A stretch of 64,000 nucleotides of DNA, taken from positions 90,946-154,945 of the forward strand of contig CAWKLM010000010.1 of NCBI GenBank assembly GCA_963850475.1. Direction: 5' to 3'. This stretch comes from Ilumatobacteraceae bacterium. GTDB lineage: Bacteria > Actinomycetota > Acidimicrobiia > Acidimicrobiales > Ilumatobacteraceae. The stretch's first letter is position 1. Each line of letters opens with the position of its first letter. The notes beneath the pieces were generated by a model. That model was given only the letters and a program-made list of their open reading frames with translations, had not been told where the DNA came from and made no database searches. Positions 23,547-32,100 of this stretch are shown piece after piece. The translations under genes and the position numbers were made by a program.

Positions 23547-24236
23547 TCAACGATGGCTCGCCTCGGCGCCGATTGTCTCGGAACACAGCCCTTGGTGGGT
23601 CTGCAATTCGATTGCCAAGTCGTATTCGACGAAGGGGACATCGAGGTGTCGGCGGCGCAGCCCGCGGCGAAGCGCCCGGACAAACATGCCCTCGCCTTCT
23701 CTGCGGGCCGCGCCCATCAAGGCGGAGTTGAACCTGCGGGCGTCCACCGTTGCCACGTCGACACGGGCGATGACCTCCAACGATTGCGACACATCGAGGG
23801 TGTGGAACACCCCACACGATGGTGACGATCCGACCCCCATGATCCCGACGACCGCGAAGCCGGACCGGTCGTAGTCGGCGATGTCGCGGACGACCTGCCG
23901 CGCCAGGCGTGCGTACACGAAGCGGGAGTGCCACAGGAACACCCGGGTCAATGGGCGCCGCAACCGGTAGATCATCGTTCCGTTCGAGCCATGGACGATC
24001 GCGAGATGCCGTTTGAGCACTCCTCCCCACGCCCGCTGCTCGGGGCAAGGCATCTGGTAGATGCCGACTCCCTCGTCCTGGAACCGGTCCACCAGTTCAT
24101 CGACGCTGCCGGGGTGCCCCGCCCCACCCAGATAGCGGACGTTCTCGTTCAGGATGCAGTGGGACACGAAGATGACGCGCCGACTGCGTCTGTCACCGAG
24201 GGCGACTTGAAGGTGTTCCAGGTTTGTGTTGCGCAC
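23547..24236 (-). CDS. DUF523 / TudS-related putative Fe-S desulfidase
   Basis: SHCILNEN, QMPCPEQ, SSPSCG three-Cys pattern. Confidence 0.75.
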   Translation of the reverse strand: MRNTNLEHLQVALGDRRSRRVIFVSHCILNENVRYLGGAGHPGSVDELVDRFQDEGVGIYQMPCPEQRAWGGVLKRHLAIVHGSNGTMIYRLRRPLTRVFLWHSRFVYARLARQVVRDIADYDRSGFAVVGIMGVGSSPSCGVFHTLDVSQSLEVIARVDVATVDARRFNSALMGAARREGEGMFVRALRRGLRRRHLDVPFVEYDLAIELQTHQGLCSETIGAEASHR

Positions 24237-24472: not shown

Positions 24473-24697
24473 ATGGCGAGCGGTCGTGCCGTCGAACCTG
24501 CCAGCTCGAGCGGTGTCGGTCCCGCGCTGCTGCTCGGCGGTGCCGGCTTCCTGTTCTACCGGACGATCGCGTTGCTCACCGGTGACGCCCGAACCGTGCT
24601 CGAGCATTGGACCTGGAGCGGAGTCGTCTTCGCAGGCGTGATGTCGGTGCTCGGCTTCTTCGGGGTTCTGGTCGTGTGGCCCTTCCGCCGCAGGTAG
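24473..24697 (+). CDS. Small membrane protein (74 aa, two TM)
   Basis: Two hydrophobic segments and basic C-terminus WPFRRR. Confidence 0.45.
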   Translation: MASGRAVEPASSSGVGPALLLGGAGFLFYRTIALLTGDARTVLEHWTWSGVVFAGVMSVLGFFGVLVVWPFRRR

Positions 24698-24737: not shown

Positions 24738-27700
24738 TCAGATCGGTGCGCATCCGCCCAGTGTCGAGGAGCAACCGAGCGACAGGTCCGTCATCCCGTT
24801 CTCGAACTGGGTCTTGACCGGTCCCTTGATCTCGCACTTCGCCTGGGCGACGTCGGGGTTGCTCTTGGCGCAGAGGATGATGCGGCATTCGAAGCCGATC
24901 TCGAACGGCCCGGCGCTGCAGCTGTTCTGGGCGTAGATCTCCTGACCGCGTCGACCCTGGTTGGGGTTGAAGCCGACCCCGCCACCGGGGGTGCCACCAC
25001 CGCCGCCGAGGCAGACCGAGCATCCGCTGTCGTCGCAGGCGACCTCGAACTCGATGCAGGCGCCGTAGGCGCACACCTGTATCGACCCGGCCGCAGCTCC
25101 GGTCAGGTCCTGCAGGGTCGTGGGCTGGTTCCGCACGTAGCGGTACAGGTTGGCGTCGCCGGAGTCGATCAGGGTCGGGTCGGGCTGCAACCAGCGTCCG
25201 GTTGCCGGGTCGTAGTCGCGGACACCCATCCGCACCAGGCCGGTGTCGGCGTCGTCGATGCCGCCGCCGTAGCCGATCGGCAGGTCGAACGTGCCGGTGG
25301 AGGACCGCAGCACACCCCAGGCGGTGTAGTCACGCGACAGCACGACCGTCCCGGTGTCGTCGATCACGACGATCGGCGTGCCGACCACGTCGGTCGCAAC
25401 GCTGAACCAGTCGCCGTCACGGCGCAGCGCCGTGAGGAAGCGGGTTCCCTGCTCGTGGACGTACTCGGTCACGACGGGGGTCCCACCGCCGGTCGGGGTG
25501 TCGACGGTGGCGGTGACGAGGGTGCTCTCGTCGAAGTCGCCGTACAGGTACACGGTCGTGTTGCCCGCAGGGTCCACCCGAGCGGTGCGGCGGCCGATCG
25601 CGTCGTAGCTGTAGGTGGCGATGGTTCCGCCGCCGTCGCTGACCTCGACCAGCTCACCGGTCGGCAGGTGATCGAGCGTCAGGCCGCGGATACCGGTGAC
25701 CTGTCCGTTGGCGTTGCTGGTCACCGCGGCGCCGTCGAGGGTTTGCAGCCGGTCCGACGTGTCGTAGGTGGCGGTGGTCGTTCCGCCGCCTTCGGTCACC
25801 GCGGTGCGGTTGCCTCGCTGGTCGTACGTGTAGCTGGCGATCACGGTGTCCGATCCGTCGCGGACGGTCGTCAACTGCCCGTCGGTGTCGTACTCGTAGC
25901 GCTCGATGGTGGTCGCGCCGCTGACGGTCACGGTTCGTTCGGTGACGCGGCCGGCGTTGTCGCGTGTCACGTCGACGTCGACGACATCGACGGGCGACGG
26001 ACCGCCGGTGTCGACGGTGATCGTCGTCCCGGTCGGTTGCTGCAGCGTGTCGGCATCGTGGCGCACCGTCGTAGTGCCGTCATCGGCACCGGAGACCATC
26101 TGCCCCGGGTTGCCGAAGGCCCACGTCCACGGCCCGGTCGCCGCAACCTGCCCGAGCTGGTCGATGTCGAAGGAGATCGGGAGCTCACTGTCCAGTTGGC
26201 GTGCCGCGATCGCATAGCTGCCGAAGTAGCTCCCGCTGCCGTTGTTGCCGTCGTAGGCGTAGGTATGGGCCTGGCCGCCGGCGTTGGTGGTGAGGCTGCC
26301 GGGGACCGACGCGCCGTAGGTCCTCGACAACGACACCTCGCCCGCGCCGACCCCCGTGTCCGGGGTCCAGGTGGCTGTCGACCAGGTGTTGATCGAGCCG
26401 GCGTCGCTGAACGTGCGTGGGTCCCGACCGTCGCGGTACGTGAAGGCCGTTTCGGCGCCGAGGACGTCGGTACCGGTCAATTGGCCGTCGAGGACGGTCT
26501 GATTCTCCACCGACCCGTCGGGCCGCGTGATCGACTCGACGCGACGGTCATCGTCGTAGGTCCAGGTCGTCGGGACCACGTCGTCGGGCGACTGGTGGGA
26601 GGCGAGGAAGCCGTTGGGGGTGTGACCGATCGTGTGGTCGGCCCCCGCGCCCTGGCCGAAGCCGGTCCGGTGGTCACGGGCATCCCAGGTGTTGGTGGTG
26701 ACCCGGCCGGCGGGGGAGGTGAGCGAGACCAGACGGTCAGCGGCGTCGTACACGTGCGACCACGTCTCACCCTCGCCGTTGGTGACCGTGCTGGGCCTTC
26801 CGAGGTTGTCGTAGGTGACGATCTCGACGTGGTCACCCTGCCTGGTCTCGATGACGCGGCCACGTGCGTCGCGGGTGGTCGTCCGGGGCTCCACTCCCGG
26901 CCCGGCGACGTGGCTGGCCACGGCCTCCTGCGGCGAGAAGGTGGTGGTCAGCACCCGACCGTCGAGCTGGGTGATCGTCTCGGTCCGGGTGCCTGTGTCG
27001 TAGGTCCGGGAGCCCTGGCTTCCGTCGTCGTAGGTGACCGTTGTCGTCAGCTGCTCCAGCGAGAGCGGGTTCAGCGGATCGGTGAAGGTGGCCGACCAGT
27101 CGGTTGACACCGTGCGGCTGGCGAACACGCCCCCAGGGGCGAACTGGCTTTCCGACCGCTCGACCTCGACCCGCACGAGGTCGCCGAACTGGGGGTGCGG
27201 ACCGTAGGTGATGTACCGCTGGAACCCGTCGGGCAGGGTGATCGTGACGGTGGACCCGTCGGGGGACGCCTCCACCGTCGAGACCGCACCGGTGGGGTTG
27301 GTCACGGAGGAACTGACCTGTCCGAACGCCTGCGCGATCTCGTACACGCTGGTGTCACGTGGCCCGGACGGGTCGCCGACGCGCACGGTGATGGTGCGGC
27401 CCGACCGGTCCGAGCCGGGCGGCCCGAAGCCGTAGCGGACGGGGAGGATGTCGGTGCGCTCGAGCTCCGTGCGCTGCCCGTCGGCGGCGACAGCCAGGAC
27501 CAGACGGCCGTACTGGTCGTATGCGTAGCTGGACGTGCCACCGGCCGGGTCGGTCTGGCCGATCAGGAGCCCGTCGTCGTAGCTCAGGTTGCGCATACGT
27601 CCGGCAGGATCGACGATCTTGGTCATCATCCCGTCGCTGAGGGTCAGTTCGGCTCGACGGCCGTACGCGTCGATGATGGCAGCGGGGGTGCCGTCGGGCG

Positions 27701-30700
27701 TGCGTTCGATGGTGGTGACGTTGCCCCACCGATCGGTCCGGGTGACCAGCCAGCCCTCGTCGTCGTAGCCGAAGGTGGTCAGGATCGCGCCCGTCCGAGC
27801 GCTCAGTGTGGCCAGGTGGCGGCGGTCGGCGGAGAACGCCCAGATCTCGGTGCCCGCCTCGTCGGGGATGCCGTAGACGATCGGCTCACCATCGATGGCG
27901 CTGCCGAGCAGCGGATCGTCGCCCGGAAGGGCGGTCAGGTCTCGGCTGCCGCCGCCGAGGACGACGATCTCACCGTGCCGATCCAGCGGAGCCGTGCCGA
28001 ACAGCGGCCGCCCTGCGATGACGACCGGGGTGCCGTCGGGGCTGACGTCCAGGCCCGTCGGCGGCGGGATCTCGCTCGAAGGGCCGCTGCGGCCCGGGAT
28101 CCCGACGCCGGCATCCAGGCCGGCGACATAGCCCGACGGCAGGCCCGGCTCGAAGGCCGCAAGGTAGAAGGGGTTGCCCACGAACCGGGTCTGGCCGGTC
28201 CCGAACGCCACGCCGTTTGCGGCGCCGACGTCGGAGTACTCGTCGTCGCGGTACTGCGTCGCGACTCCGTCCACGCCGATCTCGACGTAACCGCCGAAGA
28301 ACCCCTGCACGGTGGGCTCGGGCAGCCCGATTCCGACGACGTCCCCGTCGCTGCTGACGTCGACCGAGGTCGGTGCGTCCAACCGGATGTCGCCGCGGAA
28401 GCACTCCTGCTCACCCGGGTCCTGCTCGTCGTCGCGATCGGCGTCGGCGAAGCCGCCCACGCACAGGGCCTTGGGTTGGGCGAACGTCCCGACCTCGGGG
28501 TACACGTCGAGGGTGCCGCCACCGGCGTAGTGGACGATCTCCCCGTCGGCGGCGATGCGGCGGACCACGTCGTTGCCGGTGTCCGCGACGAACACCGCGC
28601 CGTCGCTGGTGATCGCCACGTCCATCGGGGCGTCGAGTTGGGCGGCGGTCGCCGCACCTCCGTCGCCGGAGTAGCCGGGGCTGCCCGTCCCGGCAACAGT
28701 CGTGATCGTGCCGTCGGGGGCGATCCGGCGGATCACGTGGTTGCCGGTGTCGGCGATCCACAGGCTCCCGTCGGGATGACGGTCGATGCCGTTGGGGTTG
28801 TCGAAGGTGGCGGTGACCGCTGCGCCACCGTCGCCGCCGAACCCGGGTGCGCCCGTCCCGGCGACGGTGACGATCGACGAGGTCGCCCGGTCGATCAGGC
28901 GGACGCGGTTTCGGGTGCCCTCGGTGAGGACGATGTCGCCGTTGGGGGCCACGACCACGCCGGTGGCCTCGACCTCGGCGTCGGCGGCCGCGATTCCCTC
29001 GCTGGTCGAGTCGCTGCCTCCGGTGATCATCCGAGCCGTCGGGTACGTGTCGCCGGCGGTCCCGCGGACGCTCCCGTCGCCCTTGCTGACGGTGGTCCCG
29101 TCGGTGGACAGGGAGTGGTGGTCGGTCAGCGACCAGCCGCCGAGCTGGCGGCTGTCCGGTGTGCCGTTGCGCACCGTTCCGACCCAGAAGCCCATGCTGT
29201 TGACCGAGATGGTCCGCCCGTCGGGCAGGTCGGCGGAGAACAGGTCGAGGTCGTCCAGGCTGAGCGGTGGGAGGGGGAACTCGAACGGCTGGTAGGTCGG
29301 CACGATGATGTAGTTGGGATCCAACCGGATCGGGACCTCGCCGACGACCGGCCGGCCGTAGCGGTCCAGCCCGTCCCAGGTGAACACGCCGATGTCGTCG
29401 GGTTGGGGGTTGGGGTACTGCTGGATGATCTCGCGGCCGGCGACCTGCCAGACGAGTTGCACCTCGCGGATGGCCTCGTTGACGGTGTCGGAGGCGATCA
29501 GGTCGACCTGAACCGTGCGGTCGTCGATGTAGCCGACCTGACGGTCGCTGACGTAGGCGATGGCCGTGTCGGCGCCGACGTCGACGGTCTCACCCAGACT
29601 CTGGGATTCGCAGCGGATGGTCGAGCTGCCGCTCCGCTCGCACGGGTCGTTGGAGTCGGGCTGCTCGGGCGGGTCGGGTGCCAGTTCCTTGATGCTCTTG
29701 CTGGCGGCGTTGTCGTCGTAGGAGGAGAAGTGGGTGACCAGCTTGCGGACCACGGTGTCGCCGGGGGCGAACGTGGCGGCCAGCGAGCGCAGCTCGACCT
29801 CGCTGAACCCGGCGCCCGCCGGAGTATTGGTCACATCGTCGGGCTGGTCGTCGCCGTCGAGGTCGATCGTGGCCACGTCGCCGCCGGGGCCGTCGTCGGT
29901 GGTGAGCACCTTGACCACGATCCCGTCGCCGGCATTCAGCCACGCGTGCAGTTGGGTGTCGTAGTAGCCGACCGGCATGGGGAACCCGACCTCGAATCCG
30001 AGGAAGTTGGTGGTGTGGACCGCGACGGGCTGGTCGAAGTCGACCCGACGTGCGTCGAGGGCCTCGACCTCGTCGATGGAGTACTCGGCGGCGTAGGTGT
30101 ACTGGCTCGTGGCGGGCAGGTCGGCCGGCATCGCCAACGGGCCGTTCTCGCCGACGGTGAACTCGGTCGCTCTGACGGTGAAGCTGCCGTCCAGCGGCCG
30201 GCTGGTCCCGTCGGTGAGGGTGACGGTCGCGGACAGGTTCGGCGGGAACACCAGGTGCGCAGTGCGCTGGCCGTCGTCATCGACCACCAGGGAGGAGGAG
30301 TGGGTGCCGCCGCCCGCTGGGTCGATGACGGTGGCGGCGGTGTCGCGCTGCAGCAGGACGACGTCGCCCACAACGGCCCAGTCCTCCCACGGCACATCGA
30401 CCGTCCGCTCGACGGGGATGTGGTCGTCGAGGGTGAACGTGACGGTGAGCGGCTGGCCGCCGAGGACGACCAGGTCGTACTGGCCATCGGCGCGCGAGAT
30501 GGTCCGGCCGAACTCGGGGTGATCGGCGATTTCAACGGTTGCGCCGGGGAGGGGGTCGCCGTCGCGGTCCAGGAGTCGGCCGGCGACGACGGCAACGTGC
30601 TGGTCGTCGAAGGCGGTGGTGTCCAGGCCCGTCTGCACCGGGTCGGGGCCCTCGTACAGGAAGGCGACGGAGTCGGCGAAGATCGTCTGACCCGTGGCGG

Positions 30701-32100
30701 GGTTCGGCGGGGCGTCGATGACCGGCAGGTTCGGGGTCGGTGGCGGCGTGGGCGTCGTCGTGGTGGTCGTCGTGCTCGTCGTGCTCGTCGTGCTCGTCGT
30801 GGTGTTCGTGGTGTTCGTGGTCGTCGAGGATGGCGTGATGTGGGCGACGACATCGAGGGCGTAGTGCGATGTGGTGGACGTATAGAGGCACACCTCGCCG
30901 GCCGGGTTGAGTGCAACGGTGGTCGCGTTCGCGATGTTCACCCCAGGCGTGTAGTTCAACGTCGACGCCGTCGGCCGCGTGGGCGTGCACGGATACAAAG
31001 TCGCGAACCCGCGACCCTCGTTCTGGATCGCGGTGATGTTCAACTCGACACCCACCGCACCAGCAGGCACATTCCCGCGCCCAGCGATCTTCACCTTCGT
31101 GAACGAACCCGCCTGCACCTTGCCCGCGCCCTCGAACTCGTCGTCGATCGTCTCACCGTTCGAGCGGGTGTCCAACAGACGCGCCGGAACCACCGTCCCC
31201 ACATCCGAACCAGCCGGAACAAACGCCACAACATCCAACGCGTAGTGCGATGTGGTGGACGTATAGAGGCACACCTCGCCGGCCGGGTTGAGTGCAACGG
31301 TGGTCGCGTTCGCGATGTTCACCCCAGGCGTGTAGTTCAACGTCGACGCCGTCGGCCGCGTGGGCGTGCACGGATACAAAGTCGCGAACCCGCGACCCTC
31401 GTTCTGGATCGCGGTGATGTTCAACTCGACACCCACCGCACCAGCAGGCACATTCCCGCGCCCAGCGATCTTCACCTTCGTGAACGAACCCGCCTGCACC
31501 TTGCCCGCGCCCTCGAACTCGCCGTCGATCGTCTCACCGTTCGAGCGGGTGTCCAACAGACGCGCCGGAACCACCGTCCCCACATCCGAACCAGCCGGAA
31601 CAAACGCCACAACATCCAACGCGTAGTGCGATGTGGTGGACGTATAGAGGCACACCTCGCCGGCCGGGTTGAGTGCAACGGTGGTCGCGTTCGCGATGTT
31701 CACCCCAGGCGTGTAGTTCAACGTCGACGCCGTCGGCCGCGTGGGCGTGCACGGATACAAAGTCGCGAACCCGCGACCCTCGTTCTGGATCGCGGTGATG
31801 TTCAACTCGACACCCACCGCACCAGCAGGCACATTCCCGCGCCCAGCGATCTTCACCTTCGTGAACGAACCCGCCTGCACCTTGCCCGCGCCCTCGAACT
31901 CGCCGTCGATCGGTCTCACCGTTCGAGCGGGTGTCCAACAGACGCGCCGGAACCACCGTCCCCACATCACCAACACCGTCATCAGCCTGCGAAATGCTGT
32001 TCGACTGCGCCGCCACAACGAGACCCGACACCACAATCGCCAACGCCGACACCGACCCAAACCAAGCGGCCCGACGATCAGACCTCAACTGCAACAACAT
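24738..32100 (-). CDS. Secreted bacterial teneurin-like RHS/YD-repeat protein (~2453 aa after removing one extra base at ~31911)
   Basis: GGAGG RBS and signal peptide; 3 PARLLDTR repeats; Thr linker; teneurin TTR-like and FN-plug motifs; NHL repeats; YD repeats; RDYDPATGRWLQPDP..NLYRYVRNQPTTLQDLTG core. Confidence 0.9.
30745..30830 (-). repeat. 9-bp microrepeats encoding Thr/Ser/Pro linker
   Basis: (gtgctcgtc)n and (gtggtgttc)n on +; SSTTTNTTNTTTSTTSTTSTTTTTTTPTPPP. Confidence 0.8.
30859..31968. repeat. Tandem repeat, 381-bp unit x ~2.9, nearly identical
   Basis: Same sequence starts at 30859, 31240 and 31621; differences seen are one D/G codon and one extra base. Confidence 0.95.

Follow-up and report, generated by a model that had tools for sequence, protein, structure and literature searches.

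The window analysed here, a stretch of 64,000 nucleotides from an Ilumatobacteraceae bacterium, carries on its minus strand a long open reading frame (24738-32060) which ends in a cysteine-rich domain. This C-terminal cargo (24738..25097, minus strand) starts directly after the motif PTTLQDLTG and has 119 residues, among them 11 cysteines and 21 glycines, including the run GGGGGTPGGG; its C-terminus is GGCAPI. The locus raises the question of what a domain of this kind does once delivered, and at whom it is aimed.

Carrier protein and self-cleavage sites

The carrier was originally taken for a generic RHS protein, a description which does not hold. By its sequence it is a bacterial teneurin-like protein (TLP), of the family described by Raoelijaona et al. 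2026 (PMC13018210; PDB 9pt5 and 9ifo): it matches the solved B. inaquosorum TLP (9pt5) at an E-value of 8.5e-270 and contains the Pfam domains TTR, NHL and YD-shell. From the N-terminal side, and all on the minus strand, a Thr/Pro-rich linker (30720..30830, recognised from its sequence) is followed by the teneurin TTR-like domain (30354..30611; Pfam TTR_TEN1-4, E 2e-21), the FN-plug loop C807-E-R-S-G811/S812...C817 (29610..29642, located by alignment to the solved TLP), the NHL propeller, the best-aligned part of which lies at 28536..28898 (Pfam and alignment to the solved TLP), the YD shell (25095..27869; Pfam TEN_YD-shell and alignment to 9pt5/9ifo) and the RHS core autoprotease (25098..25220; R2281, D2294 and D2318; TIGR03696, E 4e-19).

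Judging by the residues present, the carrier keeps both self-cleavage sites. The bipartite DPxG aspartyl autoprotease with its upstream Arg is there, and the spacing of R2281/D2294/D2318 (13 and 24 residues) is that of R2103/D2116/D2140 in the B. inaquosorum TLP, so that the cut is predicted after A2322. The proposal that the RHS core cleaves itself to free the C-terminal domain is supported by these three residues being in register with a solved TLP, and we consider cleavage of the cargo almost certain. The predicted length of the product changes slightly, as the cut, placed by the solved homologue, falls four residues past the second Asp and the released piece is likely 118 residues long instead of 119. 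The second site is in the FN-plug: in a comparison resting on sequence alignment only, C807 falls on the tether cysteine C719 and G811/S812 on the second cleavage site G723/S724 of the solved TLP, in which C719 of the plug is reported to be disulfide-linked to the cargo (PMC13018210).

Upstream of the linker lie three near-identical repeats of ~127 residues each (30831..31910, minus strand) with no Pfam or NCBIfam match. This repeat is common to many other proteins of the genome, on at least 13 contigs, and is likely a module for surface display and an anchor specific to the lineage. In the 74%-identical homologue P0010, CWB2 domains stand at the place of these repeats. The first repeat contains a reading-frame break (31900..31920, minus strand; near 31.9 kb), because of which the start codon (ATG at 32100), a ribosome site (GGAGG) and an N-terminus resembling a signal peptide (31921..32100, minus strand; the signal peptide was judged by eye) are in another frame than the carrier ORF. 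The break is probably an assembly error; short-read contigs from two of four runs span its position without it and none carries it, the three repeats being collapsed in these contigs.

Sequence and cysteines of the cargo

None of the 11 cysteines of the cargo varies among the four intact close homologues (4/4; 41-84% identity), which at the level of sequence rules out chance, and the description of a 119-residue domain with 11 cysteines and a glycine run behind PTTLQDLTG is borne out. We infer the disulfide pairs 9-14, 21-26, 29-116, 60-109 and 71-88, which would leave Cys76 (window 24870-24872, minus strand) free. In another close homologue, P0002, the cargo is out of frame for ~60 residues and then back, as from paired assembly errors. 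The net charge of the query cargo is -4, its maximum hydropathy over 19 residues is 1.13, and it has neither a transmembrane helix nor a catalytic motif; its GC3 is 0.87, against 0.91 for the shell. In agreement with the original description, no nuclease, deaminase or ADP-ribosyltransferase family or motif was recognised in it with Pfam, NCBIfam, PADLOC or PDB sequences, and the model described below is all-beta. There was no Pfam family of any kind at E<=0.1, nothing in NCBIfam (best E 0.069, single members), no match in PDB sequences, PADLOC or the Atlas, and the Foldseek search that had been proposed gave no match at E<=0.001 against PDB and BFVD.

The assembled genome contains no orphan copies of the cargo. 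With the cargo alone as query, no locus was found in the genome contigs searched or in any of 400 further genomes from this bacterial family (0/400), and a metagenome scan yielded RHS cores without a cargo of the query type. The sequencing runs containing this DNA are sediment metagenomes, one of which, at a share of 0.91, is possibly its source; no RNA run is among the runs listed for this DNA.

Relatives of the cargo

A search of 1.84 billion representatives gave six matches at E<=0.001, three of which are true relatives, each behind an RHS core. Two word-index searches brought P0008, the cluster of which includes the full-length P0010, and scans with the core gave more distant tips; the cargo family is found on TLPs of several phyla. 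L182, where the frame runs on, and L155/P0012, with a long extension, were dropped before the counts given here. An HMM built from 11 distant tips, with the query group left out, scored the query at 21 bits and the three relatives at 18-22 bits, values reached by none of 500 shuffles each, while hhalign gave the 11-Cys subgroup probabilities of 6% and 28% against the wider family. We regard this sequence tie of the 11-Cys subgroup to the wider family as modest.

The comparison of C-termini among orthologues, also proposed originally, gives the 11 invariant cysteines of the close homologues and, in a 13-row alignment of the wider family, Cys29, Cys76 (within a short gap) and Cys116 in 13/13 members. 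Further cysteines appear in this alignment only as pairs (9/14, 3/20, 21/26, 60/109, 71/88 and 82/87), with 62/105 taking the place of the 60/109 pair in L186. The invariant residues of the cargo are glycines and structural cysteines, not those of a pocket. In the shell tree, eight barrel-bearing TLPs group within a single clade of 10 rows (100/98). The query and P0010 share 73.9% identity in the cargo and 74.3% in the shell, an equal divergence which, as far as sequences tell, is unlike that of a rapidly swapped tip; the anchors of the two differ. Among the Paenibacillaceae cargos that are termed outer-membrane-protein-like in PMC13018210, that of P. oryzisoli has, judged by eye, the same strand pattern, an odd number of cysteines (5, compared with 11 in the query subgroup) and the plug cysteine, and the model and cysteine map presented here favour a Vap topology over the published term.

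Cysteine parity and a probable tether to the plug

In the main text of PMC13018210, a disulfide between cargo and plug is mentioned for one protein only. We counted the cysteines of 107 cargos of 60-260 residues, leaving out 15 of 122 which were outside this range. The count is odd in 22 of the 23 cargos from TLPs whose ORF also includes the plug (the exception, L121, is without the plug cysteine), in 43/49 of those with TLP-like core motifs for which the plug was not seen and in 4/12 from the family search. It is odd in 9 of the 23 RHS tips from the metagenome scan (two duplicate pairs included), as against the 22/23, for which the binomial probability is 2.9e-6, ignoring relatedness. When whole genes were fetched, six of the even-count cargos turned out to be likewise without the plug cysteine. 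In a tree set of 35 rows (a subset of L095-L170, L188-L196, L201, the query and P0010; L197-L200, with short or broken ORFs, were left out of the tree), the count is odd in 28/28 rows with the FN-plug cysteine and even in 7/7 rows without it, across unrelated cargo types. The even label needs two changes on the tree, possibly one, meaning that the even group amounts to one or two events, and the plug window aligned poorly for two of the odd rows (L132 and L140).

This match between parity and the plug cysteine suggests that the single cargo-plug disulfide of one structure is a general tether of TLPs. For the query, we hold it highly probable that the cargo is tied to the FN-plug by Cys76. Speaking against the tether, the plug holds two cysteines, which are able to pair with each other. 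The initial view of the 11 cysteines as a disulfide-rich domain would stand for the five pairs, the remaining cysteine probably being a tether and not part of the fold.

Predicted fold and the Vap family

An AlphaFold model made with 13 sequences (pLDDT 73, pTM 0.59) has eight strands and no helix; an earlier model from 4 sequences (pLDDT 44) was too poor for use. In a structure comparison against 48,161 solved chains, plus a second look, the best matches were all four R. equi Vap structures, which match the whole model (residues 1-118): VapD (Z 7.7, rmsd 3.3, 95 aligned), VapG (Z 7.5, rmsd 3.2, 93 aligned) and two structures of VapB (Z 7.4, rmsd 3.2, 93 aligned, and Z 7.1, rmsd 3.2, 95 aligned), all with a Z under 8, as might also come from a common arrangement, and all for one model only. 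The next rows are at Z 5.2; ordinary meander barrels span only residues 1-95, and avidins and small barrels are at Z 4-5.

Vap barrels are described as having the strand order b1-b2-b3-b8-b5-b6-b7-b4, with a glycine 'bald spot' on b3/b8 which binds detergent (PMC4118825). This order places C29 (b3) by C116 (b8) and C60 (b5) by C109 (b8) and leaves C76 alone, so both pairs would be on neighbouring strands, which they would not be in a meander barrel. In the model, the run GGGGGTPGGG makes up the last part of b3 and the loop of the crossover. A Vap topology of the cargo is on these grounds probable, and we describe the model as Vap-like in shape without filing the cargo as a Vap member. Comparison of the cargo with Vap by hhalign gave a probability under 1%, HMM scores were inside the shuffle range both ways, and PF05526 did not match the cargo (the control, the VapA core, was found at E 5e-63). 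Vap-type internal symmetry was not found in the cargo sequence, as at least 3/300 shuffles reached every member's score, and the model lacks the Vap helix between strands 4 and 5; the terminal Trp is also absent. No match to PF05526 over the cut-off was found in the genome. A weak one (18.6 bits, with the cut-off at 25 bits) lies in the 553-aa frame L202 (G000:C41:154397-154639).

Like the R. equi Vap family (PF05526; VapA, B, D and G), the cargo is predicted to be an eight-stranded barrel over its full length, with strand 3 adjoining strand 8 and strand 8 adjoining strand 5, has a glycine-rich end of strand 3 and is presumably a secreted or surface protein of an actinobacterium. Unlike the Vaps, to which it has no detectable sequence similarity, it would be held by disulfides and not by a Trp-centred core, has no predicted helix and is delivered inside a YD shell, whereas Vaps stand behind a disordered N-terminus. 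VapA is reported to permeabilise liposomes and to neutralise phagosome pH, and the Vap plasmid to aid survival in Acanthamoeba. Growth in macrophages is, according to the same literature, supported only by clade-1 Vaps and most Vaps give no intracellular growth, so that the fold does not give the function. Other papers drawn on were PMC11703076, PMC11323580 and PMC10100859.

Genomic neighbourhood and immunity

According to PMC13018210, the immunity gene is directly downstream in "almost all" TLPs, which makes it usual and not defining, and supplementary data 6 of that paper has four actinobacterial TLP 'immunity' entries of 242-463 aa. As noticed originally, no co-directional immunity gene adjoins the query cargo and the next gene is on the opposite strand. 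This convergent gene (24473..24697, plus strand; 41 nt from the carrier stop) is an in-frame-deleted, 75-aa remnant of a membrane-protein family which is not TLP-specific and the full members of which have ~145 aa. We rejected it as a candidate orphan immunity gene, since it is a deleted copy of a family with two further copies in the genome. The carrier stop and the convergent gene are covered by short-read contigs without differences. The next co-directional gene, ~500 nt on (23547..24236, minus strand), codes for a TudS-related putative desulfidase and not for an immunity protein, and past the carrier gene neither a promoter-like site nor a minus-strand terminator-like site was found.

The missing neighbour is a family-wide feature. 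We considered 14 family loci with DNA context, of which 13 carry the C29-C116 staple (the four closest homologues, P0001, P0002, P0003 and P0008/P0010, are not among the 14). A small co-directional gene comes next in one of the 13 stapled loci (L181, coding for a 52-aa one-helix protein; the close relative L185 is without it), a large secreted gene in 4/13, and nothing convincing in 8/13 (with L180 ambiguous). In L098, L101, L102 and L184, the barrel-cargo gene is followed directly by that of a large secreted repeat protein with a signal peptide. The four actinobacterial 'immunity' entries presumably resemble housekeeping enzymes or a foldase, which would suggest that those TLPs are also without immunity genes.

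The unstapled locus L129, a family member at 18.6 bits, adjoins an AT-rich gene for a 152-aa three-helix membrane protein. The predicted complex of this cargo with its neighbour scores 0.44, compared with 0.00 for the best control, and is graded weak; the runs share at least 75% of contacts, and the pLDDT of the partner is at least 63. In the benchmark of the complex score, the mark was reached by 116/157 solved complexes and 2/215 mismatches, but it was reached at 0.60 or under by only 18 of the 157 solved complexes and by both mismatches. L158, L160 and L165, which have other glycine-rich strand tips, likewise have small downstream genes.

Proposed function and alternative explanations

Our best reading is that the cargo is a membrane-active barrel, held on a tether and directed against eukaryotic grazers. 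We put it forward tentatively, rating it at somewhat short of an even chance; membrane activity of the cargo, taken by itself, is moderately probable. The TLP would be exported and held at the surface and, given its conserved sites, would cut itself twice, while Cys76, to judge from parity and one structure, would keep the cargo tied to the plug fragment. The shell would then open and the anchor fragment leave with the cargo. Once out, the cargo is predicted to form a barrel which is stapled by five disulfides and withstands acid and proteases. The glycine-rich strand-3/strand-8 face of this barrel is predicted to bind membrane, and in the acidic food vacuole of a grazer that had swallowed or touched the cell it could cause a proton leak, as VapA does. 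If the producer lacks the target membrane, it would have no need of an immunity protein. The original prediction of a disulfide-rich extracellular effector aimed at eukaryotes thus stands as regards the disulfide-rich extracellular cargo and is in line with a fold like that of the eukaryote-directed Vaps, whereas the eukaryotic target itself is one that we infer. A wider reading, which we find doubtful, combines a TLP clade with an immunity-free VapA-fold barrel against eukaryotic predators and a general one-cysteine leash to the FN-plug, the anchor-cargo pair being released from the shell; the teneurin ancestor would then possibly have been a protist-facing weapon and not an antibacterial one. 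This last point is made because the TLPs of Paenibacillaceae, which are reported to be the ones most closely related to animal teneurins (PMC13018210), appear to carry the same cargo.

A close rival, although we judge it rather unlikely, is an antibacterial membrane toxin which acts from outside on bacteria with another envelope than that of the producer, leaving the latter without need of an adjacent immunity gene, or the immunity gene of which lies elsewhere. So far, tests of TLP cargos have shown them to be antibacterial, and that of B. inaquosorum permeabilises and kills E. coli only when exported (PMC13018210), which leaves room for bacterial targets. The small genes behind L158, L160 and L165 and the completeness of the genome, only 62.5%, also favour such a toxin, as does the three-helix neighbour of L129, and because of this neighbour and its weak predicted complex some members may have a fold that acts on membranes and against bacteria. 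It is less easily reconciled with the 12 of 13 stapled loci without a small neighbour, which include L095 and L100 from outer-membrane bacteria, or with a cargo that tracks one shell clade. Moreover, E. coli with the P. oryzisoli cargo reached an OD of 1.33-1.36, compared with 1.32-1.37, at 6 h and showed no slowing, with a construct that is not described as exported (PMC13018210).

The cargo could also be a non-toxic, stable barrel of about avidin size for ligand binding or signalling, either displayed or released, with a role in adhesion or in recognition between cells, which we consider improbable. Encapsulation and two cleavage sites are a delivery design, the invariant glycines and structural cysteines mark no pocket, and Vap barrels are described as closed and without a ligand site (PMC4518536); on the other hand, such a barrel would agree with the lack of a catalytic motif, transmembrane helix and immunity gene, with the negative net charge, with avidins and other small barrels being at Z 4-5 and with the large secreted protein directly next in 4/13 loci. 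Much the least probable explanation is a decaying gene copy from which the immunity partner and the reading frame were lost together, as the frame break near 31.9 kb, the deleted gene remnant directly downstream and the lack of a cargo match in the 400 family genomes might indicate. The break is, however, missing from all short-read contigs that cross its position (two of four runs, with collapsed repeats), the catalytic residues and 11 cysteines are intact, GC3 is 0.87 in the cargo and 0.91 in the shell, and unbroken relatives are also without immunity genes.

Relation to known systems

The query differs from the solved B. inaquosorum TLP in having no downstream immunity gene and another N-terminal anchor, and from its hydrophobic tip in that the cargo is, as predicted, all-beta with five disulfides. 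The carrier family is already described. The literature searched, mostly without subscription papers, gave no link between the Vap fold and the cargos of TLPs or RHS proteins and no cysteine-parity rule, and likewise nothing on a Vap-like fold of the cargo, a cysteine-parity tether or an immunity-free clade. The release and the targets of TLP cargos are given as open questions in the defining paper (PMC13018210), and through the odd-cysteine pattern what was a remark on a single structure becomes a tether that can be tested directly across the family. With a Vap-type fold in the cargo, the isolated VapA fold would gain a second route of delivery and a setting in the environment, against grazers, and those tips termed 'outer-membrane-protein-like' in the TLPs closest to animal teneurins would be reinterpreted.

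Other tips

The genome contains a second TLP, L201 (G000:C36:992217-1000718), the cargo of which is Cys-free, Gly/Ala-rich and hydrophobic; it lacks the plug cysteine, has no clear immunity gene and is followed by a broken partial RHS core. In L155/P0012, L105, L106 and L111, RHS tips run on into cysteine-rich linkers and long extensions, with a von Willebrand D domain behind the barrel-like start of L155/P0012. The TLPs L067, L068, L070 and L092, from the same bacterial family, have glycine-rich, strand-like cargos with 0-2 cysteines and no small downstream gene, and in L067, L069, L070 and the C36 copy different tips are found ahead of the same oxidoreductase-like gene.
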